Shown piece by piece: positions 25,715-42,665 of a DNA stretch of 42,665 nucleotides. Positions within the stretch are counted from its first letter, which is position 1. Each line of letters starts with the position of its first letter. The stretch comes from Sedimentisphaerales bacterium (lineage in GTDB: Bacteria > Planctomycetota > Phycisphaerae > Sedimentisphaerales > Anaerobacaceae), in assembly GCA_032250555.1 (NCBI GenBank), contig JAVVFI010000001.1:1-42665 (forward strand). The letters run 5' to 3'. The position numbers and the translations under genes are program-made. The notes beneath the pieces are model-generated. The model made no database searches. It saw nothing but the letters and a program-made list of their open reading frames with translations, and was not told where the DNA came from.

Positions 25715-25841
25715 AACTTTATCCGCTAAATCTGAACTTAATTATCTTTACACTATTCCCGCAGTCCCCCTGCGGCCAGATGGCAAAACAACCGCATACT
25801 ATCAGAGGCAGTATTCAGGCTCGGCACCATATGTCTTAAAG

Positions 25842-26216: not shown

Positions 26217-26241
26217 TTCCTTTCAAAACTTATTGTGATTA

Positions 26242-26850
26242 TCAATTCTTAAATTGAGGCAGCTTGCTCAGATATTTTTCAGGATTTTTAAGAAAAGGAG
26301 TTTCACACCCTGAACAACAGAAATATACTTTCTTGCCATTGTAGGTGGTGAAAATGCTCTTATTGATTTTCCCTCCCATGACAGGACAGACGGTTTGCTG
26401 AGCGGTTTGCATTTGCTTATTCGCGGTAGCCCCTGCCGTCATTGTACCGCATGTCTCCTTACACACCGACGCCATGCTGATTGGTGCAACTGAAACATTC
26501 CAAAGTTTCTTCCGCTGGACGGGGTTTAGAACAGCCAAAGCCTGTGCTCGAGCCTGTCTTTCGATTTCCAAAAGTTTTCGATTTTGCTCGGCTGTTAAAC
26601 TCAACACCTTAGTACGGGCCAGGATGGCCGAAGGGCTGTCCAAAAATATTTTCGTTTGCATTAATGTTTTGTACTGCTCCGCCATCAGCTTCGATGTCAG
26701 CGTATTAGAAGCCTTTGTTGTTTGAGTCTTAGCTGCACAATTTGGGCAGCAACTCTCTGCAAAAGCCGGGGCGGCCGCGACAAACATCGCCAACAAAAAT
26801 ATCACAGCCTTGAAGTTTTTTCTTTCAATCATTTTCCACCTTCCTTTCAA
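26242..26850 (-). CDS. Periplasmic LTxxQ (CpxP/Spy/ZraP-like) + YHS/TRASH-like fusion protein (paralogue 2)
   Basis: 202 aa. Sec signal (AAAPAFA-ESCCPNC). LSLTAEQNRKLLEIERQARAQ is an LTxxQ-type motif. C-terminal TVCPVMGGKINKSIFTTYNGKKVYFCCSGCETPF...KLPQF. Confidence 0.65.
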   Translation of the reverse strand: MKGRWKMIERKNFKAVIFLLAMFVAAAPAFAESCCPNCAAKTQTTKASNTLTSKLMAEQYKTLMQTKIFLDSPSAILARTKVLSLTAEQNRKLLEIERQARAQALAVLNPVQRKKLWNVSVAPISMASVCKETCGTMTAGATANKQMQTAQQTVCPVMGGKINKSIFTTYNGKKVYFCCSGCETPFLKNPEKYLSKLPQFKN

Positions 26851-26889
26851 AAAAACGTACCTTAAAATTTGGTTAATTTGCCAAACATT

Positions 26890-27249
26890 TTAATTATGAA
26901 ACTGCGGCAGCTTCGCAATATAACTTGACGGACTGGCTTTAAATTTATCTATGCAGCCCGGGCAACAAAAATAAACTTTTTTATCTTCGTATTCGGTATA
27001 AATGCTTTTCTCTATAGGCATACCCATTACCGGGCAGGTTGTTTGTTCTGCGGTCTGAACCAGTTTCGTTTTTGGCTCGCTCACTATCATAGCCTTATGT
27101 CTTTGCTCGTCCATTTCCTGCCTTGCTTCAATAAATGCCTGAGAATCCGTTTCTGAAGATTTGCATCCCATAATCGCTGTAATTCCAACAAGGAAAACAC
27201 TTACAGCCAACCATACTCTTATTGATTGTTTGCTTCTTTTCTTCATCAT
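26890..27249 (-). CDS. Lipoprotein with C-terminal YHS/TRASH-like metal-binding domain (paralogue 3)
   Basis: 119 aa. Lipobox-like AIMG-C. TTCPVMGMPIEKSIYTEYEDKKVYFCCPGCIDKF...KLPQF. Confidence 0.7.
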   Translation of the reverse strand: MMKKRSKQSIRVWLAVSVFLVGITAIMGCKSSETDSQAFIEARQEMDEQRHKAMIVSEPKTKLVQTAEQTTCPVMGMPIEKSIYTEYEDKKVYFCCPGCIDKFKASPSSYIAKLPQFHN

Positions 27250-27286
27250 TCATCCCCTAAAAAATAAACTCTAAAAAGTTTCAGTT

Positions 27287-29230: not shown

Positions 29231-29294
29231 TTCAGCCACCTATTATGTTGTAATATTACAATAGTAATTCGAGACAACCAAATGAACGATTGAA

Positions 29295-30602
29295 TCACTT
29301 TTCCAGAGCACCGCTGCTGATCGAGGACAGTTCCGTCCCGATAAGCATTTCCAGTTCAGCTAATTTCTGCTGATTATTCGTAACGACCCTTTCGTAGTCC
29401 AGCTCATATTTAAGCAGCATGCGCTGGGCATCTATAAGCGAGAGAAAATCTACCGTGCCTGCTTTATAGGCGGTTTCGGATGCCTGAACAAGCTCCTCGG
29501 CCTTGGAAACTAAAACATCCCCATAAAGATGTGTCTTTCTTCGACTATCTTCTATATCGTATAGAACCTCGAATACTCTCGATAGTAATTTGTTTTCGAC
29601 ATCTGTTCTTTGCGATTGAATTTTCCTTACATTCGCTTTTGCCTGTTGCTCAGCAGCCTTATAGCTGTTCTGCCACAGGGGGATATTCATTGAAAACATT
29701 AAAATCACAGGATCATCGCCGCTGCCTTTAACTCCGGGAGAAACCGCTCCATCGGTCTGAATCCAATCGAGACCTACTCCTATATCAGGATAGAATTTCT
29801 TTTTTGCAAGCTTCACACTGCTTTTTGCCGCCTGAATTTCCCAGCTAAGCTCGGCAAGCTCAGGATTCGCTCTTTTTAACGCCTGAATTATATGCTGCCG
29901 GTCAAGCGGTACATTTTCGGGCTGACTTTTTTCGGGCCAGGCCAATTCTGCATCAATTGGCCGATTAAGCACTGAATTAAGTTTTGCAACTGTCGGCTCT
30001 TTGAGCTGCTCCAGACTTTTTAAGATATCCTCAAGTTTAGCTAATTCCACCTGGACACGAATTATGTCAGGATGTATCGCTGCGGCTGTTAAGTATTTGA
30101 TTCGTGCGACTTCTTCGAAATGCTGAAGCAGTTCGAGATTCTGTTTTGCAATATCGATAGCCGTGGCAAGATATGCGAATTCGTAAAAAGCCTCTTTTAC
30201 CTGCCTGAATAGTTTCAACTTTGTTGTTTCGTATCTTTGCTTTGCAGCTTGTGCCTTTGCTGCGGCCACATCGGTTCTGGCCTGGAGTTTGCCAAACCAG
30301 GGGAATACCTGCATGATACCGAATTTTTGTTGCTGAGGGCCGGTCCGTGTTTCGACTTCCTCGATAAAATATCCGTATGTAAATTTCGGGTCACTTAATG
30401 CTCCTGCTTGTGGAATCTGCTCTAACGCCGCCTTCCACTGCTCAAATTTAGCCTCCAGTTCTGCATTATTGAGAGAGGCATAACGAAGATAATCCGAAAG
30501 TACGTATAAATCATTTGCATCAGCCGGCTGCTGCGAAGCTTTTGCGCACTGAACGAAAACAAATACTATTACTCCCAAAGTTAAAGCGGCTCGTTTGTTC
30601 AT
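29295..30602 (-). CDS. cusC: TolC-family outer-membrane efflux protein (CusC-like)
   Basis: 435 aa. Signal peptide. Two-repeat coiled-coil/beta-barrel OEP pattern. Operon position upstream of the MFP. Confidence 0.8.
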   Translation of the reverse strand: MNKRAALTLGVIVFVFVQCAKASQQPADANDLYVLSDYLRYASLNNAELEAKFEQWKAALEQIPQAGALSDPKFTYGYFIEEVETRTGPQQQKFGIMQVFPWFGKLQARTDVAAAKAQAAKQRYETTKLKLFRQVKEAFYEFAYLATAIDIAKQNLELLQHFEEVARIKYLTAAAIHPDIIRVQVELAKLEDILKSLEQLKEPTVAKLNSVLNRPIDAELAWPEKSQPENVPLDRQHIIQALKRANPELAELSWEIQAAKSSVKLAKKKFYPDIGVGLDWIQTDGAVSPGVKGSGDDPVILMFSMNIPLWQNSYKAAEQQAKANVRKIQSQRTDVENKLLSRVFEVLYDIEDSRRKTHLYGDVLVSKAEELVQASETAYKAGTVDFLSLIDAQRMLLKYELDYERVVTNNQQKLAELEMLIGTELSSISSGALEK

Positions 30603-31159
30603 ATTTGTCCCTCAATATTATCGACCTTCTTCTCTTTTTTCTTCTGATTTGCCATAGAAAGCTCTCTTACCAGCTCTTCTATTTCATTTGATAAATTCAT
30701 CAGAAATTCTTTAGAGGACATATCCAGAGCTTCTGATTCTTTGGCTATTGACCGAATTTTCTGTGTTCGATTAGAAAGAGCAGTTAACGACAAATCCGGT
30801 ACACTGCGATCAATTTCATCCAGTAAAAGCTGAACCCCTTCAGCTATTTCCGAAATTTCGGTAATATTTGATTCAATTTCAAGAGAGCTTAAATCCCCTC
30901 GCGTTATACCATACAGCTTCAGGTACAAATCATTTATAGGTATAACTACTGTTTTATATAGAACCGCATACAGTGTCAAGTAAATGAGTGCACCTAGAAC
31001 CAGCACATGCCAACTGTGCTCTAATATGAGCCCTAATACAGTCTGCCCCGGAGTAGAAATATATTGGTGTACTGCATATACCGCCATTCCTAAAGCAATC
31101 ACTAAAGCCGAGTATCCTGCAACTATCGATGCTAATGAATTTTCTCGTTTACTTTTCAT
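30599..31159 (-). CDS. Orphan two-TM + HAMP-like + coiled-coil membrane protein
   Basis: 186 aa. Two hydrophobic helices flank a short His-containing loop (HQYISTPGQTVLGLILEHSWH). VVIPINDLYLKLYGITRGDLSSLEIE...ISEIAEGVQLLLDEI fits the HAMP pattern. Its stop overlaps the cusC start (ATGA at 30599..30602). Confidence 0.55.
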   Translation of the reverse strand: MKSKRENSLASIVAGYSALVIALGMAVYAVHQYISTPGQTVLGLILEHSWHVLVLGALIYLTLYAVLYKTVVIPINDLYLKLYGITRGDLSSLEIESNITEISEIAEGVQLLLDEIDRSVPDLSLTALSNRTQKIRSIAKESEALDMSSKEFLMNLSNEIEELVRELSMANQKKKEKKVDNIEGQI

Positions 31160-31267
31160 GAGAAATTACCCCATTAAGCAATCTTTATTCTATCCCAAAA
31201 ACATATTTTAAGTCCATAGCAATTCAATATTAAAAAAAATTAATCAGATTTATTTTTACGGTAATAT

Positions 31268-31549
31268 TTACACTCTGCGTTTTTGATGAATCAATTTGAG
31301 AATTTCATCCAGCTTTTGCTGTTTTTCCCTCTCCGAGCTTCCTTTTATAGCTTGAGTTACACAGCTTTGAAAGTGTTTTTCGATAATATTTTCTTCGACT
31401 CCGACAAGCGCTCCTTTGATAGCGTATATCTGGTTTAAAATATCAATGCAGTATTTGCGACCTTCAACCATCTTTTGGACGCCTCGAACCTGTCCCTCAA
31501 TTCGCCTTAATGCGACCAGATTATCTTCATGACTTGGGTGTTTCTTCAT
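31268..31549 (-). CDS. csoR: CsoR/RcnR-family metal-sensing transcriptional repressor (CsoR-like, x-C-H-C)
   Basis: 93 aa. LRRIEGQVRGVQKMVEGRKYCIDILNQ...EKHFQSCV shows the conserved Cys...His-x3-Cys Cu(I) ligand pattern. First gene of the cus cluster. Confidence 0.85.
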   Translation of the reverse strand: MKKHPSHEDNLVALRRIEGQVRGVQKMVEGRKYCIDILNQIYAIKGALVGVEENIIEKHFQSCVTQAIKGSSEREKQQKLDEILKLIHQKRRV

Positions 31550-31582
31550 TTCTTATTCCTTATTTATCTTTCTACACCCAAT

Positions 31583-31599
31583 ATACCCCCCGGGGGTAT
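31583..31599. promoter_or_regulatory. Putative CsoR operator: ATACCCCC-C-GGGGGTAT perfect inverted repeat
   Basis: 8-bp perfect arms around a single central base, 34 nt upstream of the csoR ATG. AT-flanked G/C-tract palindromes are the known operator type for the CsoR/RcnR family. Confidence 0.65.
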
Positions 31600-31638
31600 G
31601 TTGTGTTCGGAAAAAACTTGTTTTTATGAAATTTAGTT

Positions 31639-32757
31639 TTAGTCCGATATCGTGCCGCCTGCAACGATATTATCAGCGTTATTATAAACCACAAGCCTTT
31701 GACCTGGACAAGGTGCGAATTGAGGCAGGTCAAAATCGACTGTTATAGAATTTTCACCAATATTAGTGAGTTTGCAAGGTTTAGGATCACCGTAGGAACG
31801 GATTTTCCCGAAGAATTTCCTGATCGGGACAAGTTCTTCAGGAATGAGCACATTTATCCGGTTTGCTCTGACGGTATGAGTGCTCACTTCTTCTCTTGAA
31901 CCTAATGCAATCGTGTTTGCCTCAGCATCAATCTTGCCGACATACAGTGGCTTACCGCCGGCATAACCAATACCCTGCCTTTGGCCAAGAGTGTAGTGAG
32001 CAATGCCTTTATGCGTACCAATTATGTTCCCCTGCATATCCGTTATGTCACCCTGCCGATTGGCCTCAGCGTCATCCAGAGCCAATCGATAATCACCCTC
32101 TCCCGCAAAACAAAGTTCCATACTTTCAGCTTTGTCCGCAACACTCAGATTTAATTGAGCGGCAGTCGAACGAACCTCATCTTTTGTCAACTCGCCTAAC
32201 GGCAGAATAAACCTCTGAAGTTTTTCTCTGGAAATTCCATATATAAAATAGCTCTGGTCCTTGGTTTGATCTTTCGCCCGGCCAAGCCGCGTCTTACCAT
32301 CAGCTTTGGAAACTCGCGCATAATGACCCGTAGCAAGATAGCTAATCCCGAATGTTTCCTCCAGGAAATCCCAAAGCAGGGAAAACTTAAGGAGCGTATT
32401 GCAGTCCACACAGGGATTGGGAGTTTCACCCCTCGAATAAGATTGACGAAATTGCTTTATTATCAGCTCTTCGAAAGGTTCAGTAACATCGACAAAATAA
32501 TGAGGTATATTCAATTCACCGCACACAAAGGCGGCATCGGCGCCGCAGCATCCTCTTTTATTTGTATTGCACGAGACAGGTATCTTCATCGTGATACCTA
32601 ATACGTCCCAGCCTTGCTCTTTCAGCAGATAGGCCGTAACGCTGCTGTCAACTCCACCGCTCATTAATACAGCGACAGGTTTTGAGCGTTCCTTGTCGGC
32701 TCGCCAGGGCGAAAAACTCGGCCCCAATAACTTGATATTAAACTTATCGGTTGTCAT
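31639..32757 (-). CDS. mnmA: tRNA-specific 2-thiouridylase MnmA
   Basis: 372 aa. VAVLMSGGVDSSV PP-loop and conserved Cys (NPCVDCN). Typical length. Confidence 0.9.
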   Translation of the reverse strand: MTTDKFNIKLLGPSFSPWRADKERSKPVAVLMSGGVDSSVTAYLLKEQGWDVLGITMKIPVSCNTNKRGCCGADAAFVCGELNIPHYFVDVTEPFEELIIKQFRQSYSRGETPNPCVDCNTLLKFSLLWDFLEETFGISYLATGHYARVSKADGKTRLGRAKDQTKDQSYFIYGISREKLQRFILPLGELTKDEVRSTAAQLNLSVADKAESMELCFAGEGDYRLALDDAEANRQGDITDMQGNIIGTHKGIAHYTLGQRQGIGYAGGKPLYVGKIDAEANTIALGSREEVSTHTVRANRINVLIPEELVPIRKFFGKIRSYGDPKPCKLTNIGENSITVDFDLPQFAPCPGQRLVVYNNADNIVAGGTISD

Positions 32758-32772
32758 AATTACCGAAAGTTT

Positions 32773-33693
32773 TTATTCGAACAGTGCCGTGCTGATATAT
32801 CGCTCGGCTGTGTCGCAAAGGACAGCAACTATCAGTTTGTCCGCATTTTCCTGTTTTTTACCTATCTTGATAGCTGCGGCCGCTGCGGCACCGGCTGATA
32901 TACCGGTAAAAATACCTTCTTCTTTAGCCAGGCGTTTTGCCATATCAAATGCCTCGGCATTTGATATCTGCACAACCTCATCAACAACTTCTAAATCCAA
33001 AACATCAGGGACGAAACCCGCCCCAATGCCTTGAATCATATGCGGGCCGGGCTTGCCGCCCGAAAGAACAGGTGATTCCGCCGGTTCAACAGCAACGATT
33101 TTGACGGATGGTTTGCGCGATTTCAGCACTTCTCCAACACCGGTTATTGTGCCGCCGGTTCCTACACCGGAAACAAAAATGTCCACTTGTCCATCGGTAT
33201 CAGCCCAAACCTCTTCAGCGGTTGTTTCTCTATGTATCTGGGGATTCGCAGGATTAAGAAACTGCTGTGGCATAAAAGCGCCATCGGTTGTTTCCACGAT
33301 TTCATTGGCCTTATTGATCGCGCCGGTCATACCTTCTTCTGCAGGTGTAAGTACAAGTGTGGCACCGAATAGCTTGAGTATCTTTCTTCGCTCGATAGTC
33401 ATCGATTCCGGCATAGTAAGTATCAGCTTATATCCCCTTGCCGCTGCGACCCACGCAAGTGCGATACCGGTATTACCGCTTGTAGGTTCAACGAGAGTAT
33501 CACCGGGCTTGATTTTACCGGCTTGTTCCGCTGACAATATCATATTTACACCGATACGGTCCTTGACACTGCTGGCTGGATTGAAGAACTCCAGCTTACC
33601 CGCTATCTTTGCTTTACAATCTCTGCTTACTCTGTTGAGTTGAACCAGCGGTGTTTTACCAATTAATTCAGTCATATCTTTTGCAATATTCAT
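32773..33693 (-). CDS. cysK: Cysteine synthase A (O-acetylserine sulfhydrylase)
   Basis: 306 aa. [10 protein letters not shown] (PLP Lys), [20 protein letters not shown] and [12 protein letters not shown] motifs. Confidence 0.9.
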
Positions 33694-33742
33694 TTAATCA
33701 ATCCTCTAAACAAAATGTTTAACAACACAAATTACAGAAATA

Positions 33743-35968
33743 TTATTTTTTTCGGCGCACTTTTACGAAAAAGTGATCACCGTTGTTTTTAATTTCCAAT
33801 ACTTCCTGGCCCTGATCGGCAAAGCTCGCCGGCACATTCCTTACCGGCTCCCCTTCATCAAGCAATACGCCAAGAATAGCACCTGTTTCGAGCTTTTCAA
33901 GCTCAAGTTTGGCTTTGACGAAGTTTAAGGGGCATCCGACACCACGCAAATCGATAACATGATTATTAGTCTCAGCTTCATCTACGATAGTTTCTTTTGC
34001 CACCGGCTCTATCTTAAACTTGAGATTGGCATCAAGGGACAGGTAAAGCTCTTCCACACGTCTTGTTAAATCCCGGGCCTGCGAATACAAATCCTCGATT
34101 GACTCTCTATCGCCCATACGCCAGTCAACCGCTTCGTCAAGGAGCTGCTGTGTCTGAGGTTTAACCCAGCCCGGTTCAATAAGACCTTTTGAAAATGCTG
34201 CAAATATTTCTCTGTCCTTTTTGGGCTCCAGACCGAACGTAACCATCAGCGCCCTGGCCGCGGCAACAACCGCTTTATAAATATTTTCACTGTGAACAGG
34301 TTCCGACTTGAGTGCATCTTTCGCTTCTTCGATATCCAGCTTGATTACGTCCGTCACACCAGCCCCGCACTCACCCGGCCCCCTGCCCGCCAGAGAAAAC
34401 GGCTCATTCGAACCATAGTCATAATAATAGTCCTCTGGAAATTGCTCCGAAGAAAAATCACTGTATTGACCAACCATTTTTTTTAGCTTTTCTTCATTAA
34501 TTTCACCGCCTTCAAAAGCTTCTGATAACAACTCAGGTATTTTTTTTGCCGGTACCGTACCAATTCTTTTGCCCAAATTTGCATCACCTTCAACAGTTTG
34601 TGCACCAACCAACACATCATAGCATGGCATCAGTCTGCCGTTGACTCTTTTGGCTTTTCCCTGGAATCCTATTGAGGCGATATAATGATGACCGCAGGAA
34701 TTCGGACAGCCGCTGATTCTTATGGTTGTCTTAGACAAATCGGCTGAAAAATCCTTATGGCTCAACTTCTCCGAAATCGCCTCAGCCAAACCTCTTGAAA
34801 GACATAGCCCGAGTTTGCATGTCGAAGCTCCGGCGCAGGCAACTATTTTGGAACCGCCGTCGCCAAATACATCAATGCTGAGTTTCTTAAGTTCGCTATG
34901 GACCTTGTCAATAGCTTCTTCGGCAACACCTGTAATGAGAAGGTCCTGCAGTTGAGTAGTCCTTATGAGTCCCTGGCCGTATTTAGCTGCGATTTGACCG
35001 ACTATGTTTAAATCATCCGCGGGTATATCGCCGTTTTTCAATCGTAATCGCACAGTAACCGACTTCTCAGGCGCCTTATATACTGAACTAATATCACGGA
35101 TTTGCGGCGATGGGTAAGGAAGCCCATCGGCCTTAAGTATATCTCTTTCGGCCCGGTACAGTTTGATAAATTCTTCAATACCGACTCTGGCGAGCACATA
35201 TCGTAATCTTGCTTTATGCTTGTTTGCCCTGTCACCGTATTGATCGAACAATCTCTTGACCGCCTCTGCAACTGCGAAAATCTCTTCAGCTTCTATGAAA
35301 TCTTCTATTTTCGCTGAAACTGCTGGATTCGAGCCAAGCCCCCCCGCGGCATAAACAGAAAAACCTTTCACTCCGTTCTTAATGTGGGCGAAAAAGCCAA
35401 GGTCTGCTATAGAAGCAAATGCACAATCCTTTGAACAGCCGGAAAAAACCAGTTTGAATTTTCTTGGCAAATTAAAAGAGCTTCTGTCCTGCAGGAGATA
35501 TTCTGCAGCGGCAATCGCATAAGGAGCAACATCAAATTCTTCTTCCGGACAAACCCCCGCCTCCGGACAGGCTGTAACATTACGAACAGTATTACCTCCC
35601 CCGCCGCGTGAAGAAAGCCCTGCTTCAAGCAGACCTTCCAGTACATCCGGCGTATTTTCGATATCTACCTCGTGAATCTGGATATCCTGTCTGGTAGTAA
35701 CGTGGATAATCCCATTGCCATAAGTCTTACTCAACTGGGCAATTCGTTCCAATTGATGCGGCAAAACCAGTCCCCCCCCGATACGTATTCGAATCATGAA
35801 TTTACCTGCTGTTCTTTGCTCATAAATTCCCATTGGTACTCGATAGGCTCTAAAAGCTACCGGTGACGTTTGGCCGTCAAGAAACTTTTTAACACCGCTG
35901 CGGTAGCCATGAGTATCTTCTTTGACGCTTTGGGGAATATGCAGAATTGGCTCTTGTTGTTCACTCAT
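33743..35968 (-). CDS. Assimilatory-type sulfite (nitrite/sulfite) reductase hemoprotein fused to an uncharacterised linker domain and a C-terminal TusA/SirA-like domain
   Basis: 741 aa. Siroheme-[4Fe-4S] Cys motifs CAGASTC (C-x5-C) and GCPNSC (C-x3-C). C-terminal about 75 aa carry VIDLRGVGCPLNFVKAKLEL, the CPxP active-site motif of TusA-like sulfurtransferases. Confidence 0.8.
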   Translation of the reverse strand: MSEQQEPILHIPQSVKEDTHGYRSGVKKFLDGQTSPVAFRAYRVPMGIYEQRTAGKFMIRIRIGGGLVLPHQLERIAQLSKTYGNGIIHVTTRQDIQIHEVDIENTPDVLEGLLEAGLSSRGGGGNTVRNVTACPEAGVCPEEEFDVAPYAIAAAEYLLQDRSSFNLPRKFKLVFSGCSKDCAFASIADLGFFAHIKNGVKGFSVYAAGGLGSNPAVSAKIEDFIEAEEIFAVAEAVKRLFDQYGDRANKHKARLRYVLARVGIEEFIKLYRAERDILKADGLPYPSPQIRDISSVYKAPEKSVTVRLRLKNGDIPADDLNIVGQIAAKYGQGLIRTTQLQDLLITGVAEEAIDKVHSELKKLSIDVFGDGGSKIVACAGASTCKLGLCLSRGLAEAISEKLSHKDFSADLSKTTIRISGCPNSCGHHYIASIGFQGKAKRVNGRLMPCYDVLVGAQTVEGDANLGKRIGTVPAKKIPELLSEAFEGGEINEEKLKKMVGQYSDFSSEQFPEDYYYDYGSNEPFSLAGRGPGECGAGVTDVIKLDIEEAKDALKSEPVHSENIYKAVVAAARALMVTFGLEPKKDREIFAAFSKGLIEPGWVKPQTQQLLDEAVDWRMGDRESIEDLYSQARDLTRRVEELYLSLDANLKFKIEPVAKETIVDEAETNNHVIDLRGVGCPLNFVKAKLELEKLETGAILGVLLDEGEPVRNVPASFADQGQEVLEIKNNGDHFFVKVRRKK

Positions 35969-35969
35969 T

Positions 35970-36380
35970 CTATCTTTCCATAATCTTTATAGGCACTTCA
36001 GTTACATTAGTTCCTGCTATATGAAATCCTTTGACCACAGAACCATTATTGTTCTGCAGTGAAACAATTACATAAATCACATTCGGCGTAAGTGCCAGCT
36101 TGATATCCACTGCCGAAGGCCTGGCTGGCGTTTCAGGATGGCTGTGATATATCGCTAACATCTCAAGCCCGGCCGAGCGGATATCTTTGACTGTCGCAAA
36201 CTGCTCCTTTGGATCCATCATATAATGGGTGCTGCTGTTATCGGTATTTGTCATCTTATAAAACTTCTCGACCCTACCATTGATGCCTGCCAGAATTCCA
36301 CAGTCCTCGATTGGTGCAAGAGCTTTAGCTCTAGCAACCATCTGTTGAAATATTGTATTTGGAATCTCTAACTTCAGCAT
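35970..36380 (-). CDS. JAMM/MPN+ metalloprotease (Mec/HcyD/QbsD-like)
   Basis: 136 aa. PIEDCGIL (conserved Glu) and HSHPETPARPSAVD match the JAMM motif H-x-H-x7-S-x2-D. Confidence 0.85.
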   Translation of the reverse strand: MLKLEIPNTIFQQMVARAKALAPIEDCGILAGINGRVEKFYKMTNTDNSSTHYMMDPKEQFATVKDIRSAGLEMLAIYHSHPETPARPSAVDIKLALTPNVIYVIVSLQNNNGSVVKGFHIAGTNVTEVPIKIMER

Positions 36381-37189
36381 TGGCAGTCCTTGAGATCACA
36401 TACGACCTGTTCTTCGTCCTTCAATTCAGTTATTTGTGGTTTTTCACCGCACAGTGGGCAGTCGGGATTTCGGTTTAATTTGATCGAACGAAAGTTCATT
36501 TCGAGCGCATCATACGTCAACAATGTTCCGGTCAGCAGCTTGCCGAGGCCAAGCAAATACTTTATTGCCTCTGTTGCCTGCAATGAACCAATAACCCCGG
36601 CCAGAACACCAAGTACGCCGGCCTGCGAACACGATGGCACCGCATTGGCAGGGGGCGGAGCATTAAAGATACAGCGATAGCACGTGGTTTCGCCGGGCAA
36701 TATTGTTATCAACTGCCCGTGGAAACGCAAAATCCCTGCATGTGAAAGCGGTATCTTCTCAAAATAACACGCATCGTTAATTAGAAATTTGGCGCCGAAA
36801 TTGTCCGTACCGTCAATTACAAAATCGTACTTACGAATAACGTCTGATATATTCTTGGCATCCACTCTTCTCTGGTAGGTCTGGACGGTGACATCCGGAT
36901 TTATGGCCCGCATCTTGTTTTCGGCGGATTTAATCTTTTCGACGCCTACATCACTTGTATGATGGATTATCTGGCGTTGCAGGTTTGATAAATCCACCTT
37001 ATCATAATCTACAATCCCAATCGTTCCAACCCCGGCTGCGGCAAGGTATAATCCCGCCGGGGCGCCAAGACCGCCCGCACCTATAATCAACACTTTGGAG
37101 TTCAGCAGTTTTTCCTGACCTGCACCGCCAACCTGCTCCAGGATTATATGTCGGCTGTATCTTTCTATTTGTTTTTCAGTTAGAGACAC
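36374..37189 (-). CDS. ThiF/MoeB/HesA-family E1-like adenylyltransferase (HcyF/MoeZ-like, no rhodanese domain)
   Basis: 271 aa. GAGGLGAPAGLYLAAAGVG nucleotide loop, DLSNLQRQ, CYRC...CPLC zinc motif. GTG start preceded by GGGAGG, which is encoded by the Gly codons of the carrier gene. Confidence 0.85.
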   Translation of the reverse strand: MSLTEKQIERYSRHIILEQVGGAGQEKLLNSKVLIIGAGGLGAPAGLYLAAAGVGTIGIVDYDKVDLSNLQRQIIHHTSDVGVEKIKSAENKMRAINPDVTVQTYQRRVDAKNISDVIRKYDFVIDGTDNFGAKFLINDACYFEKIPLSHAGILRFHGQLITILPGETTCYRCIFNAPPPANAVPSCSQAGVLGVLAGVIGSLQATEAIKYLLGLGKLLTGTLLTYDALEMNFRSIKLNRNPDCPLCGEKPQITELKDEEQVVCDLKDCQC

Positions 37190-37391
37190 TTCCGCCTCCC
37201 ATAAAATATAAAAATTCCACTTTATCGTCGTCCTTTAGTACCGTCTCTTCAAACTTGCTTCTTTTCAGAATCTGCCCGTTGAGTTCCACCGACACCATAT
37301 CCGGCATCTGTACATTCTCCTGAGCCAGAAGTTGATTCACAGTCAAACCATCATTAATATTAGTCTCTTTGCCATTTATAACAAGATTCAT
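37176..37391 (-). CDS. ThiS/MoaD-family sulfur-carrier protein with a 4-residue extension after the Gly-Gly
   Basis: 71 aa. ThiS-like pattern (INGKE...LNGQIL...DDDKVEFLYFMGGG) ending GGG-SVSN. Its start overlaps the metY stop (ATGA). Confidence 0.8.
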   Translation of the reverse strand: MNLVINGKETNINDGLTVNQLLAQENVQMPDMVSVELNGQILKRSKFEETVLKDDDKVEFLYFMGGGSVSN

Positions 37392-38638
37392 TTTGTCTCC
37401 TTGAAAGCTATTTCTATTGCCTGCTGAAAATCAGCCTTTATATCCTCAAAATCCTCGATACCGACCGACACACGGACCATATCCTCGGTAACTCCCATTT
37501 TATTCTGTTCAGCAATGGTGAAATCATGAAATATAGTAGAGGCCGGATGTACGACCAATGTTTTCGCATCACCAAGATTTGCAAGGTTCTTTGCCAGCTT
37601 AAGTGAATCGATAAAACTAAATGCCCGTTGCTTATCACCAAGCCCGAAAGTGAGCAGCCCCCCGCCGCGACCGGCAAACAGCTTTGTAACTCTTTCGCTA
37701 AACCTGCTGTCCGCCAATCCCGGATAATTCACCCAGGATACTTTAGGATGGTCCTGTAGAATTTGGGCTAATTTCCCTGCGTTTTCATTGTGTTTGATCA
37801 TTCTTACCGGCAAAGTATCTAAACCCTGCAGCATAAGAAAGGAATTCATCGGAGCAGGACAGCCCCCAAGATCGCAATAAATTAGGTTCCGCAAATTCGC
37901 AAGGAAAGCTAATTGCCCGACTCTCTGAGATACATCTCTTATATCATCAAACACCCCTTTCCTCCAGTTATAGTTACCCGTATCGATTATTGCCCCGCCA
38001 ATCGCCGTGCCGTGCCCGTTAATAAACTTTGATGTCGAATGAACAACAATATCGGCACCGAAATCCACAGGCCTGATTATAAAAGGCGTAGTAACGGTAT
38101 TATCAACAACCAAAGGCAAATTGGCCTTGTGAGCAATATCAGCTATCGCCGCTATATCAGGTACATCCATTCGAGGATTGCCGATAGTCTCGATAAAAAT
38201 CAGTTTTGTCTTTTCATTGATAGCTTCTGCAAATTGATTCGTCTCTGCACCATCAACAAAGTTGGTCTTTACTCCGAACCGCCCTAAAGTATTTTCAAAT
38301 AAAGATACCGTCCCGCCGAATATGCCCGTCGCTGCGATTATCTCGTCTCCGGCCCTCGTTAAACTCATCACAACCGACGCGATAGCCGCCATACCGCTGG
38401 AAGTGGCAATGCAGCCGATCCCGTCTTCAAGCAGAGTCAGTCTGACCTCGAGAGCGGTAGTGGTTGGATTCGCAATCCGTGTATAGATATACCCCGGAGC
38501 TTTGCCGTGAAAAACATCGGCAAGCTCCTGGGCTGTTTTATAAGCATAGGATACGGTCTGGCAAATCGGTACTGCCGAAGCACCGCTGATACTATCGCCT
38601 GCAAAACCACCGTGAATTGACAAAGTTTCTGGTTTCAT
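37388..38638 (-). CDS. metY: O-acetylhomoserine sulfhydrylase (Cys/Met-metabolism PLP enzyme)
   Basis: 416 aa. HSTSKFINGHG (PLP Lys) and overall MetY/MetZ-like pattern (ETLSIHGG..., YTRIANPT). Confidence 0.8.
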   Translation of the reverse strand: MKPETLSIHGGFAGDSISGASAVPICQTVSYAYKTAQELADVFHGKAPGYIYTRIANPTTTALEVRLTLLEDGIGCIATSSGMAAIASVVMSLTRAGDEIIAATGIFGGTVSLFENTLGRFGVKTNFVDGAETNQFAEAINEKTKLIFIETIGNPRMDVPDIAAIADIAHKANLPLVVDNTVTTPFIIRPVDFGADIVVHSTSKFINGHGTAIGGAIIDTGNYNWRKGVFDDIRDVSQRVGQLAFLANLRNLIYCDLGGCPAPMNSFLMLQGLDTLPVRMIKHNENAGKLAQILQDHPKVSWVNYPGLADSRFSERVTKLFAGRGGGLLTFGLGDKQRAFSFIDSLKLAKNLANLGDAKTLVVHPASTIFHDFTIAEQNKMGVTEDMVRVSVGIEDFEDIKADFQQAIEIAFKETK

Positions 38639-38665
38639 TTTTCAGCTTTACCTCTTTACTTTTTA

Positions 38666-39379
38666 CTATATCTGGTAGTCAAGCAAAGGCTTTGTGTGGA
38701 TACCGCACTCACCGCCGCACTTGCTCGTTCCGATCCAACGGCCGGCCCGCTCGTCAACACCCTGAGCGATTTTCGTGCATGGTGCGCAACCAAGAGACCT
38801 GTAACCTTCGTTATAAAGCGGATTAACAGGTACATCATTTAAGGCCAGATACTGCCATATTTCTCGTTCATACCATATAAGAATGGGATTTAGCTTTATC
38901 AGGCCTTTGTCCAGCTCTTCCACTTCTTTGTAATTCGTTCGCGTCCGGCCCTCGGTGCAGCGAAGCCCTGTGACCCAGCACTCAACGTTCATTTCCTGAA
39001 CAGCCTGCCTCACAGGTTGAACCTTTAGGATTTCGCAGCACTTGTCAGGATCGGTTTCATAAAGCTTATCCGAAATTTTTTCCTCATTGCTGAAAACCTT
39101 CAACTCCGGATATCTGGCAACTTCTTCTGCCATAAACTGCTTCGTTTCCTTTGGTTTGAACCTTGTAGTAACTATGAAGCCTCGAATCTTCGGACTTACA
39201 CGTTTCGCAAGATGCCATACAGCGCTGGAATCTTTACCAAGGCTGTTCGCAACTACCAGATTATCGCCGAATTCCTTGTAAGCACGATCAATCAATTCCA
39301 GTGAGCGATCTACCTTCTCTGCAAAATTTAGCTTCTCGACAAGCTCTACAACATTTTCTGTAACTTCTTGAATTAACAT
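38666..39379 (-). CDS. cysH: Adenylylsulfate (APS)/PAPS reductase, CysH family; Fe-S (APS-type) signature present
   Basis: 237 aa. PAPS_reduct fold. C-terminal ECGIH (the ECGLH motif). The CC (DKCCEIL) plus CAPC cysteine pairs are characteristic of the [4Fe-4S] APS-reductase subclass. Confidence 0.8.
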   Translation of the reverse strand: MLIQEVTENVVELVEKLNFAEKVDRSLELIDRAYKEFGDNLVVANSLGKDSSAVWHLAKRVSPKIRGFIVTTRFKPKETKQFMAEEVARYPELKVFSNEEKISDKLYETDPDKCCEILKVQPVRQAVQEMNVECWVTGLRCTEGRTRTNYKEVEELDKGLIKLNPILIWYEREIWQYLALNDVPVNPLYNEGYRSLGCAPCTKIAQGVDERAGRWIGTSKCGGECGIHTKPLLDYQI

Positions 39380-39491
39380 AACCTTAAATCTCCTTGTAAC
39401 ATAACTGTAACTAACGTAAAGTGTTAAATCTGATACTTTGGAGGCTGCCGGCTCGTATCGGAAGTAGCCTCTTTTTTAAAGCTTACTTTTC

Positions 39492-40535
39492 TCATAACAA
39501 TCCAACCTTATTCGCTATCACCGTAAACATGAATGACAAACCTAAAGCAATTAATGGTGCTATAACCCAAACCGTTAATAGTTTCTTTATGGTGGCTGTA
39601 CAGACAAAACTTACGCCTCTCCTATTTGTTTTGCCGATACCTAACCCGATTATTGCTGCCGTATTTAATTGAACTAATGATGTAGGGATACCTTTAATAA
39701 CTGATGCAAGTAATAGTAGAGTTGCTGTAACAACTGAGATTAAAATTGCCCCTAAAGGTCCAATCTCTGTTATCTCTTTTCCGGTTGTTTGCACTACCCT
39801 TTGACCAAAAAGTGAGCTTCCAATACCAAAGCATGGAGTAATAAGCAATACAGAAAGAATCATAATAAGTAAAGGATTCTCTCCGTTTGTACCAATATCT
39901 AATTCGTTAAAAACCATTGATGCTATAGGACCTGATACATTTGCTACATTATTAGAACCAATTGCAAAAGCTACATAACACGATGCCAGTATTACAATAA
40001 TTTTCAATGAAGGATGATTAGATATTTGTTCAAATTTAATTTTTCCTCTTTCATTTATTGGGCCCCATACAAATTTTCCAATAATTACTGTAATTCCAAA
40101 AGATACAAATGGTAGTATCAGCCATGTAGGTATTATTTCAAAAAACAGTTTGTGTGTTTTGAGAATATCAAAATAAATAGCAGGACCAATAAGGGCAAAG
40201 ACTGTAGCTTGACTTGTCGACTGAGGGATTCTTAACAAATTTGCCATCAAAATGGAAAGGCAGACTGATAACAAAATTATTGTGGTCAGGGTTATACCCA
40301 TTACTTCTCCCGGCAAGATACCTTTACCAATTGTCAACACGACCTTCTTGCCACCTATTATGGCACCAAAAAAGACAAACAACCCAAATAATCCCGGTAT
40401 CAAATCTTTCCTTATAATGTTTGAACCATAAGCGGCAGAAAAGGATGGTGATGTTCCACTTCCGCCCATATTTATTGCTAAAAACATTGCCACAAGGAAC
40501 GGAACAAGAAGTATAGAAAACATTGGCGATAACAT
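39492..40535 (-). CDS. PiT (Pho4)-family anion permease, probable sulfate permease (CysP-like) by context
   Basis: Polytopic. AIGSNNVANVSGP resembles the PiT signature GANDVAN. Start moved to the ATG at 40535 (GAGG 7 nt upstream), because the longer ORF to 40652 overlaps the DUF2061 gene. The B. subtilis sulfate permease CysP belongs to this family. Confidence 0.7.
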   Translation of the reverse strand: MLSPMFSILLVPFLVAMFLAINMGGSGTSPSFSAAYGSNIIRKDLIPGLFGLFVFFGAIIGGKKVVLTIGKGILPGEVMGITLTTIILLSVCLSILMANLLRIPQSTSQATVFALIGPAIYFDILKTHKLFFEIIPTWLILPFVSFGITVIIGKFVWGPINERGKIKFEQISNHPSLKIIVILASCYVAFAIGSNNVANVSGPIASMVFNELDIGTNGENPLLIMILSVLLITPCFGIGSSLFGQRVVQTTGKEITEIGPLGAILISVVTATLLLLASVIKGIPTSLVQLNTAAIIGLGIGKTNRRGVSFVCTATIKKLLTVWVIAPLIALGLSFMFTVIANKVGLL

Positions 40536-40617
40536 AAATCTACCTCTTAAATGGCGATTCTCATTAATGTTCTGTGTATTTTCAAAGTGCAGAAGGCATC
40601 TGAAATACTGTAAATCA

Positions 40618-40839
40618 TTATATTTGATACTCCGGCGACTTCTTTTTGCCAAAACTCAACCGATTCCACAGCCGTTCATGGAAGTAAAATGCCGCTATCT
40701 TAATTACTGTATCCAATAGGCCAATTTGTGCGGCTAAATCAAGTCTGCGAGTCAGAATCCAAGCAACTGCAAAAGTAACCACGGTCCCACCGGTACGCCA
40801 GGTTATTGCCTTCGCTATGCTTCTAGCATGTGATTCCAT
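40618..40839 (-). CDS. DUF2061-family small membrane protein
   Basis: 73 aa. SIAKAITWRTGGTVVTF...DTVIKIAAFYFHERLW matches my recollection of DUF2061, a family often linked to sulfate-activation genes. Confidence 0.6.
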   Translation of the reverse strand: MESHARSIAKAITWRTGGTVVTFAVAWILTRRLDLAAQIGLLDTVIKIAAFYFHERLWNRLSFGKKKSPEYQI

Positions 40840-40930
40840 AAGTTATTGCTTCCTATTCCATAGCTTACCTATGGTGTTACTGGGTTATATAATAAAAAAT
40901 AAATGTTCATGAAAAATCTGTCCTCTCTAA

Positions 40931-41377
40931 TTAAATATTGTAATTTGGAACACACTTCTCTCTTTTAGCCTTTTCAAAGTCTATCAAGTCAGCAAATGTC
41001 TTGTTTGTGCAAACCTCAGATATTGATTGATTCACTTCCCGCCAAAGCTCCTTAAAGGCTTCGTTTCCAAATAATGAGGTGTCTCCATTATCTTTGAAGG
41101 CTTCTGGAGCTACTGATATTTCGCCCTGGATATATTCAACGACTTCTCTGACTGTCAGCGTCTTAGGATCTCTTGCTAATAAATAGCCGCCTTCATTGCC
41201 TCGTCTTGATTCGACAAACCCGCCATGTTTGAGTTCATTAAGTATAATCTCAGTAAATCGTTGAGATATCCTTTGGGAACTGGCGATATCATGAGTTTTA
41301 ACTGTTTCACCGGTATTTCGCCGGGCAATCTCAAGTATTGCCTTTAAGGCGTATTGGCATTTCTTTGATATTTTCAT
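40931..41377 (-). CDS. Rrf2-family transcriptional regulator lacking the Fe-S Cys triad (CymR-like)
   Basis: MKISKKCQYALKAILEIA... winged-HTH of the Rrf2 family, with only one Cys in the C-terminal half. Start set at the ATG 41377 (GAGGA 9 nt upstream). Confidence 0.8.
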   Translation of the reverse strand: MKISKKCQYALKAILEIARRNTGETVKTHDIASSQRISQRFTEIILNELKHGGFVESRRGNEGGYLLARDPKTLTVREVVEYIQGEISVAPEAFKDNGDTSLFGNEAFKELWREVNQSISEVCTNKTFADLIDFEKAKREKCVPNYNI

Positions 41378-41396
41378 ATAAATCAATCCTCATTAT

Positions 41397-41425
41397 TTCT
41401 ATCGGAATACTATTCTATCGGAATA
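41397..41425. promoter_or_regulatory. Tandem direct repeat TTCTATCGGAATA x2 (16-bp period), candidate Rrf2 operator
   Basis: Exact 13-mers at 41397..41409 and 41413..41425, 20-48 nt upstream of the Rrf2 ATG. The second copy is part of the inverted repeat TATTC-N5-GAATA. Confidence 0.45.
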
Positions 41426-41522
41426 AATGTTCGCTGTCAACAGTTTTTTCATAAAATATTTGCAAATATATTTAAATACCTGAAAAAAACGCTGTTTTTC
41501 GTTAAATTTTTGACAACATAAG

Positions 41523-41558
41523 TTGACAAATTACCGTAATATGCTACTAATGCAGTAG
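41523..41558 (+). promoter_or_regulatory. Candidate sigma-70 promoter for the plus-strand Rrf2-cysE unit, with overlapping palindrome
   Basis: TTGACA (41523..41528), 17-nt spacer, ACTAAT (41546..41551). CTACT-AATGC-AGTAG inverted repeat (41544..41558) overlaps the -10. A second TTGACA lies at 41510..41515. Confidence 0.35.
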
Positions 41559-41579
41559 GAAATTATAAGGAACTTAATT

Positions 41580-42014
41580 ATGAAACTTTCTACTCGAACC
41601 AGATATGGGATACGGGCAATATTGGAATTGGCACAAAATTACGGTAATGGGCCTTTACAATTGAGAATTATTGCACGTGATCAGGGAGTATCTATAAAAT
41701 ATCTGGAACAATTAATGGCAATGCTAAAAGCAGCAGGCATTGTCAGGAGCGTGAGAGGATCCAAAGGAGGGTACATCCTGGCTAAATCACCTGGTCAGGT
41801 TAAAGTCAGTGAGTGTTTTCAATGCCTGGAAGGATCTGTAATTACAACTGAGTGTGTTGAAGACGAAAGTTTTTGTGAAAGAACGAGTGATTGTATTGCC
41901 AGGCAGGTATGGACAGAAGTTCAGGAGGCCGTTATGGGAGTTTTACAATCAATGACATTACAAAATCTTGTTGACAGAGCAAAAAATGATAAAGCGATAC
42001 ATTACCATATATAA
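41580..42014 (+). CDS. Rrf2-family transcriptional regulator with Cys cluster (probable Fe-S binding, IscR/NsrR-like)
   Basis: MKLSTRTRYGIRAILELA... Rrf2 HTH. C-terminal ECVEDESFCERTSDC gives C-x6-C-x5-C, close to the IscR/NsrR ligand spacing. Confidence 0.8.
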   Translation: MKLSTRTRYGIRAILELAQNYGNGPLQLRIIARDQGVSIKYLEQLMAMLKAAGIVRSVRGSKGGYILAKSPGQVKVSECFQCLEGSVITTECVEDESFCERTSDCIARQVWTEVQEAVMGVLQSMTLQNLVDRAKNDKAIHYHI

Positions 42015-42023
42015 GGCTTGAAA

Positions 42024-42665
42024 ATGAAAAAGAAAAAATTAACTTCCCGAAAAATGGAAAAACTGGTCAGTGAAATTGCCCAAACATATAAAGATGACAC
42101 CGGTATAAATTTCATTGATGTCTCTAATCTGCCAATCCGACGAAAGATTTTGAAAATCCTTGAGTTACTGACTGAGGTCCTTTTCCCCGGCTATACAGGA
42201 ACAAGAACGGTAACGAAATCAAATATCAGTTTCATCGTCGGTGATATTCTCTGTCAGGTCTATACAGAGCTTTCGGAACAGATAGAACGGGCTTTTCAAT
42301 ACCAGTGCAGAATTAAGAAGTGCGAAGGCTGTGATTGCCGGTCAATGGCGGAAAAGGCTACACAACATTTGCTGTCAAAACTTCCGAAAATCAGAGAGCT
42401 GTTAAAAGGTGATGTCGGTGCGGCCTTCGGTGGAGACCCTGCGGCAAAGTCTTTTGAGGAAATTGTGATAAGTTATCCCTGTATCATGGCGATTGCCACC
42501 TATCGCATTGCTCACGAGCTGTATCTAAAACAAGTACCGTTAATTCCAAGGATAATGACTGAATGCGCCCATTCAAAGACAGGGATCGATATAAATCCCG
42601 GAGCCAAGATAGGCAAAAACTTCTTTGTCGATCACGGTACGGGTGTTGTAGTTGGTGAAACATCC
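42024..42665 (+). CDS. cysE: Serine O-acetyltransferase, 3' end outside window
   Basis: Open frame from the ATG at 42024 to the window edge (not in the ORF track because it has no stop). Ends in GIDINPGAKIGKNFFVDHGTGVVVGET, the hexapeptide-repeat active-site region of CysE. Confidence 0.85.
   Translation, partial: MKKKKLTSRKMEKLVSEIAQTYKDDTGINFIDVSNLPIRRKILKILELLTEVLFPGYTGTRTVTKSNISFIVGDILCQVYTELSEQIERAFQYQCRIKKCEGCDCRSMAEKATQHLLSKLPKIRELLKGDVGAAFGGDPAAKSFEEIVISYPCIMAIATYRIAHELYLKQVPLIPRIMTECAHSKTGIDINPGAKIGKNFFVDHGTGVVVGETS

Follow-up and report, generated by a model that had tools for sequence, protein, structure and literature searches.

How does a bacterium that assimilates sulfate hand its reduced sulfur to the enzyme that makes homocysteine? 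This question is raised by a locus of a Sedimentisphaerales bacterium of the phylum Planctomycetota, which lies in a stretch of 42,665 nucleotides of contig JAVVFI010000001.1 (assembly GCA_032250555.1) that we refer to as the window. Here, five closely packed minus-strand genes encode MetY, a ThiS-like sulfur carrier, a ThiF-type activating enzyme (E1), a JAMM protein and a siroheme sulfite reductase (Sir) that ends in a TusA domain. A preliminary description of this DNA had read the block as a protein-thiocarboxylate module, in which the sulfur is carried on the C-terminus of a small protein.

In this study we compare the block with known sulfur-carrier systems and with related loci from other genomes. 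With a probability that we put at about 0.8, it is the Planctomycetota counterpart of the protein-thiocarboxylate homocysteine pathway of Wolinella succinogenes (HcyS, HcyF, HcyD, MetY and Sir), placed within one assimilatory sulfate-reduction operon. The one-to-one correspondence with the Wolinella proteins, the HcyS signature found across phyla and the conserved gene context are counted in favour of this reading, as are MetY-ThiS fusion proteins (P0310 and P0363) and the paired MetY paralogs of two Kiritimatiellia loci (L025 and L027).

The five-gene block and its Wolinella counterpart

The five genes, with lengths in amino acids (aa) taken from the list of open reading frames, are as follows.

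37388..38638, minus strand: metY, 416 aa
37176..37391, minus strand: carrier (ThiS-like), 71 aa
36374..37189, minus strand: E1 (ThiF-type), 271 aa, GTG start
35970..36380, minus strand: JAMM, 136 aa
33743..35968, minus strand: Sir (Sir-TusA), 741 aa

All four junctions were read directly. Within AAAATGA, the ATGA at 37388..37391 holds both the metY stop and the carrier start, a 4-nucleotide (nt) overlap. The carrier and E1 genes overlap by 14 nt at GGAGGCGGAAGTGTCTCTAACTGA, with a GGAGG Shine-Dalgarno sequence 5 nt ahead of the E1 GTG, and the N-terminus of E1 as read from this GTG aligns with that of the Wolinella E1. The E1 and JAMM genes share the 7 nt of ATGCTGA, and a single nucleotide separates the JAMM stop from the Sir start in TAGAATG. 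Tight packing of the block is also seen in relatives and in W. succinogenes, and the arrangement is therefore not a matter of chance. Translational coupling of this kind would keep the five proteins in balanced amounts.

Each protein carries the features of its family. The carrier matches Pfam ThiS (4e-13) and its C-terminus reads FLYFMGGG (GGG at residues 65-67), followed by a four-residue tail, SVSN, which by analogy would have to be removed to expose the C-terminal glycine. The FLYFMGGG end is kept in about 35 loci of many phyla, with a tail that varies from 1 to about 15 residues. In E1, the sole significant and full-length Pfam match is ThiF (1.6e-85, residues 11-245 of 271), and the Pfam scan of the 271 aa found no rhodanese domain; the protein contains the nucleotide loop GAGGLG (37-42), the zinc-site pairs CYRC (170-173) and CPLC (244-247), and Cys187. 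The JAMM protein matches Pfam Prok-JAB (1e-23) with an intact JAMM/MPN+ motif (Glu25 and H79-S-H81...S89..D92). MetY matches Pfam Cys_Met_Meta_PP (6e-124) and TIGR01326 (3.5e-145), with K204 in STSK as the lysine that binds pyridoxal phosphate (PLP), and Sir matches Pfam NIR_SIR and NIR_SIR_ferr, with TusA at its C-terminus. The coordinates, the three overlaps and the 1-nt gap given in the preliminary description were all confirmed, every diagnostic motif that it named was found in the translations, and the Pfam and NCBIfam profile searches bore out each of its five domain assignments.

The Wolinella locus was traced in steps. A metagenome-assembled genome (MAG) of the Campylobacteraceae (L047) carries PAPS (3'-phosphoadenosine 5'-phosphosulfate) reductase, ThiS, E1, JAMM, Sir-TusA and a MetY matching PDB entry 3RI6, the crystallised W. 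succinogenes MetY (Tran et al. 2011), at E=1e-182; the aligned 3RI6 sequence led to an identical protein (P0271, 100% identical to the 3RI6 MetY) and this in turn to contig L084. That contig encodes DUF2061, CysH, CysD, CysN, ThiS (69 aa), a ThiF without rhodanese (272 aa), JAB (130 aa), Sir-TusA (764 aa) and siroheme synthase, with metY transcribed divergently. By exact-sequence look-up, the L084 proteins are W. succinogenes CAE10106-CAE10109 and CAE10114, and 3RI6_A falls in the MetY cluster; HcyS is CAE10109, HcyF is CAE10108, HcyD is CAE10107 and Sir-TusA is CAE10106/WP_011138900. Identity between the window and Wolinella proteins is 48% for the carrier, 56% for E1, 40% for JAMM, 50% for DUF2061 and 37% for MetY, while the Sir proteins are 35% identical end to end, middle domain and TusA included. 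The W. succinogenes HcyS ends in FLYFMGGG-A, which we take to be the "HcyS-Ala" of Krishnamoorthy and Begley (2011). According to papers that cite the Wolinella work, its MetY uses the carrier thiocarboxylate and not sulfide (PMC8191291, PMC6271081, PMC6225789).

The two systems thus have in common a ThiS-fold carrier with FLYFMGGG and a tail, a rhodanese-less ThiF-type E1, JAMM, MetY, a Sir with a GRGxGEC middle domain and a C-terminal TusA, flanking CysH and DUF2061 genes, and equally tight gene overlaps. They belong to different phyla, Campylobacterota and Planctomycetota, and differ in several other respects. In the window metY lies directly upstream of the carrier gene and is coupled to it, whereas the Wolinella metY is divergent; the two MetYs belong to different clades; and the carrier tail is SVSN here and Ala in Wolinella. 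A Cx5C...Cx3C cysteine set in the N-terminal half of Sir is complete in the window protein, but Wolinella has D, A, S and R at those positions. CysD/CysN and CysG are part of the Wolinella cluster and not of the window, whereas cysK and mnmA are found in the window operon.

Neighbourhoods of this class, with identical composition, were described by Iyer, Burroughs and Aravind (2006; PMC1779556), who list W. succinogenes among the organisms. In their account of these operons the E1 is always without rhodanese, and SirA/TusA is always present with a predicted rhodanese-like role. Planctomycetota is not among the lineages listed there for the class, and that part of the text says nothing of two subtypes, of Cys534 in the middle domain or of the additional Fe-S cysteines, all of which are presented below.

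The claim that the pairing of a rhodanese-less E1 with Sir-TusA was an uncharacterised architecture could not be upheld: the W. succinogenes cluster is identical in this respect (Sir-TusA of 764 aa, ThiF of 272 aa), and the rhodanese-less E1 with an obligatory SirA/TusA had already been stated in PMC1779556. The reading as a protein-thiocarboxylate module holds, with 48/56/40% identity to HcyS/HcyF/HcyD, the FLYFMGGG end and a link to metY and sir that is kept across phyla. The preliminary description had considered that the trio of carrier, E1 and JAMM might cluster with ThiS/MoaD systems in a context that is not conserved. We found the trio far closer to HcyS/HcyF than to genuine ThiS, ThiF or MoeB, with the metY/sir link kept. 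Against the carrier, genuine ThiS structures in the PDB reach no better than E=6.5e-5 (B. subtilis) and E=0.06 (E. coli), and the window E1 scores 203 bits with MoeB and 196 bits with ThiF of E. coli. This E1 stays below the cut-offs of the equivalog-type MoeB models (372 vs 449 bits for PRK08762, 237 vs 377 bits for TIGR02355), and the only MoeB model that it passes is the broad subfamily model PRK05690 (296 vs 266 bits).

ThiS-adjacent MetYs from Planctomycetota, Verrucomicrobiota, Kiritimatiellia, Armatimonadota and Chloroflexota share 46-82% identity with the window MetY. Judged from these identities, the window enzyme is part of a carrier-linked clade to which neither the 3RI6 clade of W. 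succinogenes nor the canonical MetY paralogs belong. In the Kiritimatiellia loci L025 and L027, a canonical-type MetY is present together with a window-type MetY that adjoins ThiS, and this co-occurrence argues that the window-type enzyme is specialised.

The Sir-TusA fusion and the subtypes of the module

The Sir protein consists of three parts.

34514..35968, minus strand: Sir core, residues 1-485, a NirA/Sir-type siroheme-[4Fe-4S] reductase (Pfam, PDB, Foldseek)
33974..34498, minus strand: middle helical domain, residues ~491-665, with no Pfam family; contains GRGxGEC (Cys534)
33755..33958, minus strand: TusA (SirA-like) domain, residues 671-738 (Pfam TusA), with Cys679 in DLRGVGCPLN

The PDB matches of the core are NirA and nitrite reductase (~1e-44), and Foldseek likewise leads to NirA/SiRHP. 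Its catalytic-half cysteines, C378-x5-C384...C421-x3-C425, are invariant in 42 diverse Sir representatives, and specificity for sulfite over nitrite is inferred from the gene context only. The middle domain has no significant match in Pfam (the best, HEPN, is non-significant at E=0.095); its helices are predicted with a local confidence score (pLDDT) of 75-91 in a model of full-length Sir, for which the overall pLDDT is 73. When the C-terminal 251 residues were modelled on their own with AlphaFold, confidence was low (mean pLDDT 54). Cys534 of the GRGxGEC motif is invariant in 42/42 representatives and in 71/71 alignment rows, which include the window and Wolinella. The TusA domain scores 57.7 bits against PF01206 (cut-off 28.6; 1.1e-15) and by Foldseek superimposes with template modelling (TM) scores of 0.82-0.86 on E. 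coli TusA (0.85) and on the SirA-like protein 3hz7 of D. hafniense. Its Cys679-Pro680 pair is invariant in the 42 representatives and all 71 rows as well, and the active-site motif is here CPxN, against the classical CPxP.

A second Cx5C...Cx3C set lies in the N-terminal half of Sir (C134, C140, C178 and C182; 35423..35569) and is spaced exactly like the catalytic one. Among the 71 fused Sirs it is all or none, with four cysteines in 36 and zero in 35, W. succinogenes being one of the latter. This distribution and the catalytic-like spacing suggest that the Sir of one subtype has an additional site for Fe-S or siroheme. The anion-binding Lys-x-Lys (K170/K172) is present only once in Sir, so that a second catalytic site would not be indicated.

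Homologues of the Sir-TusA fusion number in the thousands. NIR_SIR and TusA occur together in every one of the 120 best, which are at least 72% identical, and most of the top 150 cluster representatives (34-55% identity) are full-length, at 730-820 aa. When an alignment of the middle domain plus TusA was scanned against one genome per species, the fusion was found in at least 598 species genomes. The best 80 of these matches come from Planctomycetota, Chloroflexota, Spirochaetota, Verrucomicrobiota/Kiritimatiellia, Fibrobacterota, Calditrichota, Omnitrophota, Halanaerobiales, Bacteroidales, Elusimicrobiota, Campylobacteraceae and others.

Neighbouring genes were mapped by profile searches built from the window proteins, and the 44 loci with enough flanking DNA were taken as informative. 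Carrier, E1 and JAMM all lie within 6 kb of Sir-TusA in 30 of the 44, and 26 of these 30 also have MetY; JAMM is directly upstream of Sir in 26/44, and CysK is within 6 kb in 23/44. The association of the trio with metY and sir, for which the preliminary description had proposed a survey of gene neighbourhoods, is hence conserved in many phyla, and the Planctomycetota relatives L001-L003 keep the gene order from Rrf2 to Sir. None of the trio was found within 6 kb of Sir-TusA in 12 of the 44, mainly Prevotella/Bacteroidales and some Spirochaetota. This means that service to the carrier is not the sole purpose of the TusA domain, and Sir-TusA would have a carrier-independent role unless the trio sits elsewhere in those genomes. 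In eight Prevotella/Bacteroidales loci (L049, L050, L053, L059, L068 and L078-L080), Sir-TusA stands with CysH/CysD-like genes and the trio was not found within 10 kb.

The loci with a ThiS-adjacent MetY fall into two kinds. In 15 of them, which include the relatives of the window, metY comes before the carrier gene, its product shares 46-82% identity with the window enzyme, and the N-half cysteine set of Sir is complete; in 8 others the carrier gene comes first, MetY shares 48-53% identity with 3RI6, and these cysteines are missing from Sir. The Wolinella and Campylobacteraceae loci also have a Sir without N-half cysteines. The cysteine set co-varies perfectly with MetY clade and gene order, and by this pattern the window belongs to a sister subtype of the characterised one, itself without a characterised member.

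Several loci show apparent gene fusions: JAMM-Sir-TusA (L025 7922..10720, and P0120), ThiS-E1 (L022 13426..14457), the two MetY-ThiS proteins mentioned above, and CysK and ThiS in one open frame (L056 and L063). They would support a physical coupling of the module parts, if they are not artefacts of frameshifts or gene calling. An extra stand-alone TusA gene lies between E1 and JAMM in L055, L061, L066, L073 and L074, which belong to Bacteroidales, Prolixibacteraceae and Spirochaetota.

The surrounding sulfur operon

The block is flanked by further genes of sulfur metabolism and regulation.

41580..42014, plus strand: second Rrf2-family regulator (Pfam Rrf2 2.8e-37), divergent, upstream of cysE
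42024..42665, plus strand: cysE, serine O-acetyltransferase, N-terminal 214 aa (TIGR01172 1.4e-23, model positions 2-88 of 162)
40931..41386, minus strand: Rrf2-family regulator (Pfam Rrf2 1e-30)
40618..40839, minus strand: DUF2061 small membrane protein (Pfam DUF2061 5.4e-21)
39492..40652, minus strand: PiT-family permease (CysP-like, putative sulfate; PHO4 2e-42 from residue 62)
38666..39379, minus strand: cysH, (P)APS reductase (PAPS_reduct 9.5e-41; NF002537 171.9 bits vs 154)
32773..33693, minus strand: cysK, O-acetylserine sulfhydrylase (TIGR01139 474.7 bits vs cut-off 351)
31639..32757, minus strand: mnmA, tRNA 2-thiouridylase (Pfam tRNA_Me_trans domains 6e-66)

The operon most likely comprises, in order, Rrf2, DUF2061, permease, cysH, metY, hcyS, hcyF, hcyD, sir-tusA, cysK and mnmA. 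Its boundaries rest on short gene gaps, since a promoter and terminator scan of the region gave no excess of sites over shuffled sequence; a near-consensus promoter-like site (TTGACA-17-TAGAAT) is present at 41440..41412, and such sites are no commoner than in shuffled sequence. An Rfam scan of 30500..42665 at E<=0.1 returned no family, and so no S-adenosylmethionine (SAM) or other riboswitch.

Upstream of the block, cysH ends 27 nt before metY, and it is kept in this place in relatives and in Wolinella. The permease matches the sulfate permease model NF053884 at 8.9e-63, below the cut-off of the model. Its longest open reading frame, which starts with TTG, overlaps DUF2061 by 35 nt, and the PHO4 match does not set in before residue 62; translation probably begins at an internal ATG near 40535. 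The DUF2061 gene heads the cluster here as in W. succinogenes (L084 9558..9785; 50% identity), and was seen in 12/44 other loci.

The minus-strand Rrf2 gene is probably the first gene of the operon or its regulator, and occupies this position in L001-L003 and many other loci. The two Rrf2 genes stand back to back with 193 nt between them, one heading the sulfur operon and the other preceding cysE, and by their family both proteins are likely CymR/IscR-like regulators of sulfur assimilation.

Downstream, cysK follows sir by 49 nt, and its product scores lower with CysM models than with the cysK model. The mnmA gene follows 15 nt behind cysK, holds the same position in L004-L008, L023 and others, including many Planctomycetota loci, and is probably the last gene of the operon. 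The link of an Rrf2 regulator with mnmA resembles the cymR-yrvO-mnmA operon of B. subtilis. By analogy with E. coli, in which TusA serves MnmA, the fused TusA domain might do so here as well. The cysK/cysE pair noted in the preliminary description is only partly borne out: both genes are present, but they are 8.3 kb apart and on opposite strands, and cysE is partial as it runs off the end of the window.

Directly downstream of the sulfur operon, 21935..31549 holds an unrelated copper/silver-type efflux cluster (CusCBA-like) with a resistance-nodulation-division (RND) pump, a membrane-fusion protein with heavy-metal-binding domains, an outer-membrane factor, two YHS-domain proteins and a CsoR-like repressor. 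The remaining genes of the window are unrelated too and include sugar-acid metabolism. The closest homologues are from MAGs named as Planctomycetota, Phycisphaerae or Sedimentisphaerales.

Proposed transfer of sulfur to homocysteine and its alternatives

From homology and gene context, we infer the following course for all steps of the pathway. Sulfite derived from CysH would be reduced by the siroheme/[4Fe-4S] domain of Sir. The JAMM protein would trim SVSN off the carrier to expose a C-terminal Gly-Gly, and the rhodanese-less E1 would adenylate the exposed glycine. Reduced sulfur from Sir, either as bisulfide or via Cys534 and the TusA Cys679, would then turn the acyl-adenylate into the carrier thiocarboxylate (carrier-COSH). 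MetY would add this thiocarboxylate to O-acetylhomoserine, and after an acyl shift JAMM would hydrolyse carrier-homocysteine, giving homocysteine and recycled carrier. In parallel, cysK and cysE would provide a route to cysteine.

In the QbsE/QbsC/QbsD and PdtH/F/G systems of Pseudomonas, the residues after GG are likewise removed by JAMM before activation by E1. The E1 of these siderophore systems carries rhodanese, their sulfur goes into the siderophore, and they have no Sir or MetY. They are the thioquinolobactin and pyridine dithiocarboxylate (PDTC) systems entered in row 4a of PMC1779556. The MetO/MetM/MoeZ/Mec system of Streptomyces converts O-phosphohomoserine to homocysteine (Hasebe et al. 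2024, as cited in the GapMind preprint of 2026, 10.1101/2024.10.14.618325). It shares with the pathway proposed here a homocysteine sulfur that comes from a carrier-protein thiocarboxylate, but it works with the threonine-synthase-like MetM on O-phosphohomoserine and with MoeZ as E1, whereas the window type has MetY and O-acetylhomoserine.

A number of observations weigh against the proposed course. The carrier passes the thiS equivalog model TIGR01683 of NCBIfam (68 bits vs a cut-off of 37), so that automatic annotation would label it ThiS. The window MetY is no closer to the carrier-using 3RI6 (37% identity) than to the canonical Wolinella paralog (41%), and its top PDB matches are the canonical sulfide-using MetYs 8sf5 and 7kb0 (~1e-120); the case for carrier use by this enzyme therefore comes from gene context. 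Neither ATP sulfurylase nor homoserine O-acetyltransferase was found in the window.

The form in which sulfur leaves Sir is the first point on which readings differ. A direct relay, in which Cys534 and the TusA Cys679 take up sulfur at the siroheme site and deliver it in persulfide form to the E1-bound adenylated carrier with no free sulfide, was proposed in outline by Iyer et al. (2006; PMC1779556), and according to the same study the E1 lacks rhodanese in all operons of the class, as it does here and in Wolinella. The invariance of both cysteines agrees with a relay, and so do the JAMM gene immediately ahead of Sir-TusA in 26/44 loci, the apparent JAMM-Sir-TusA fusions and the extra TusA genes between E1 and JAMM. 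The 12/44 Sir-TusA loci without carrier, E1 or JAMM nearby speak against it, and so does chemistry: six-electron reduction of sulfite yields S2-, but TusA carries sulfane sulfur (persulfide), and a partly reduced intermediate or a redox step would be needed. In the mechanism of Krishnamoorthy and Begley (2011), moreover, the carrier thiocarboxylate is reportedly formed by attack of Sir-made bisulfide, which acts as the nucleophile. On balance a direct relay is possible but doubtful.

A variant of this idea draws on DsrAB-DsrC with TusA/IscS, a system that is comparable by analogy only: it too joins a siroheme reductase to a cysteine-bearing sulfur acceptor, and the window Sir has the TusA fold and its Cys-Pro. 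The C-terminal module of Sir may then be a built-in DsrC-like acceptor for sulfur of the siroheme site, in which Cys534 and Cys679 would form a persulfide that is passed to the carrier-adenylate, so that no free sulfide would arise on the way to homocysteine. In the window subtype, an additional Fe-S cluster at the N-half cysteines would supply electrons. DsrC has, however, a TusE-like fold, is a separate protein and bears two C-terminal cysteines, whereas the window Sir is of the assimilatory NirA type with a TusA fold. We regard the variant as speculative and unlikely; if true, it would also revise the accepted Wolinella mechanism, since the Wolinella Sir has the same fusion.

The carrier thiocarboxylate might also, or instead, feed cysteine synthesis through the co-transcribed CysK, in the manner of CysO and CysM in M. 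tuberculosis. The CysO/MoeZ/Mec+/CysM system has in common with the window a ThiS-fold carrier, an E1, a JAMM protein that hydrolyses the adduct, and a PLP enzyme that uses carrier-COSH. Its product is cysteine, made by CysM from O-phosphoserine; MoeZ carries rhodanese, and the operon has no sulfite reductase/TusA fusion. Operons of the CysO type are entered in rows 4c and 4d of PMC1779556. A role of CysK is compatible with the position of cysK on the same strand just behind sir, with its presence near Sir-TusA in about half of the informative loci, with the order Rrf2, CysK, ThiS, MetY, E1, JAMM, Sir in six loci of several phyla, where cysK adjoins the carrier gene (L034, L044, L045, L054, L062 and L083), and with the two loci in which CysK and ThiS share a single open frame. 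However, the window CysK is a cysK equivalog (TIGR01139, 475 bits) scoring above the CysM models, the carrier is translationally coupled to metY and not to cysK, and the characterised relative uses MetY. A supply of CysK by the carrier is thus improbable in our view. Assignment to the M. tuberculosis CysO type was rejected, as the E1 is without rhodanese and the adjoining PLP enzymes are MetY and a cysK equivalog.

Still less credence can be given to a MetY that uses free sulfide, with the trio serving the buffering or storage of reduced sulfur or another thiolation. The canonical best PDB matches of MetY, its identity of only 37% to 3RI6 and the presence in the operon of mnmA, a sulfur-consuming tRNA thiolase, would fit such a division. 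It is opposed by the ATGA coupling of metY and carrier, by the adjacency of the two genes in the 15 loci of the window subtype, by the coexistence of a canonical-type MetY paralog in L025 and L027, and by the MetY-ThiS fusion proteins.

It is very improbable that the trio is a regular ThiS/ThiF system for thiamine or MoaD/MoeB system for molybdopterin, placed beside sulfur-assimilation genes: the TIGR01683 match and the MoeB type of the top named E1 models favour such a reading, but the window contains no thiG, thiH, thiC, thiE or moaE, the carrier is much closer to HcyS than to the ThiS proteins of B. subtilis and E. coli, a C-terminal tail and an adjoining JAMM are not features of ThiS or MoaD, and the association with MetY and Sir is kept across many phyla. 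Both memberships were rejected, the thiamine one on the missing thiamine genes and the four-residue carrier tail, and the MoaD/MoeB one on the absence of moa genes from the window and an E1 below the equivalog MoeB cut-offs.

By its gene content, the block is a further example of the known HcyS/HcyF/HcyD-MetY-Sir class and not a new kind of system. What is new here, at the level of sequence, is the window subtype, with its own MetY clade, its order of metY before carrier and its second Fe-S cysteine set in Sir. A literature search for a described Sir-TusA fusion or for newer work on the module gave Iyer et al. (2006) as the only relevant study, and that search found no study of the function of the TusA domain in Sir-TusA.

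Price et al. (2018; PMC5764234) pointed out that neither MetaCyc nor KEGG contained the pathway and that its proteins were mis-annotated. The parts of the module bear database names such as "ThiS", "MoeB/ThiF family" and "sulfurtransferase TusA family protein". With Sir-TusA in at least 598 species genomes and the trio in most informative loci, the module is widespread beyond Campylobacterota and should therefore be included in reconstructions of methionine synthesis for Planctomycetota, Verrucomicrobiota, Fibrobacterota, Omnitrophota and others. Furthermore, the Sir-TusA fusion is part of a characterised system, and to our knowledge its role there has never been examined. The invariant pair of Cys534 and Cys679 offers a concrete handle on whether assimilated sulfur is channelled.

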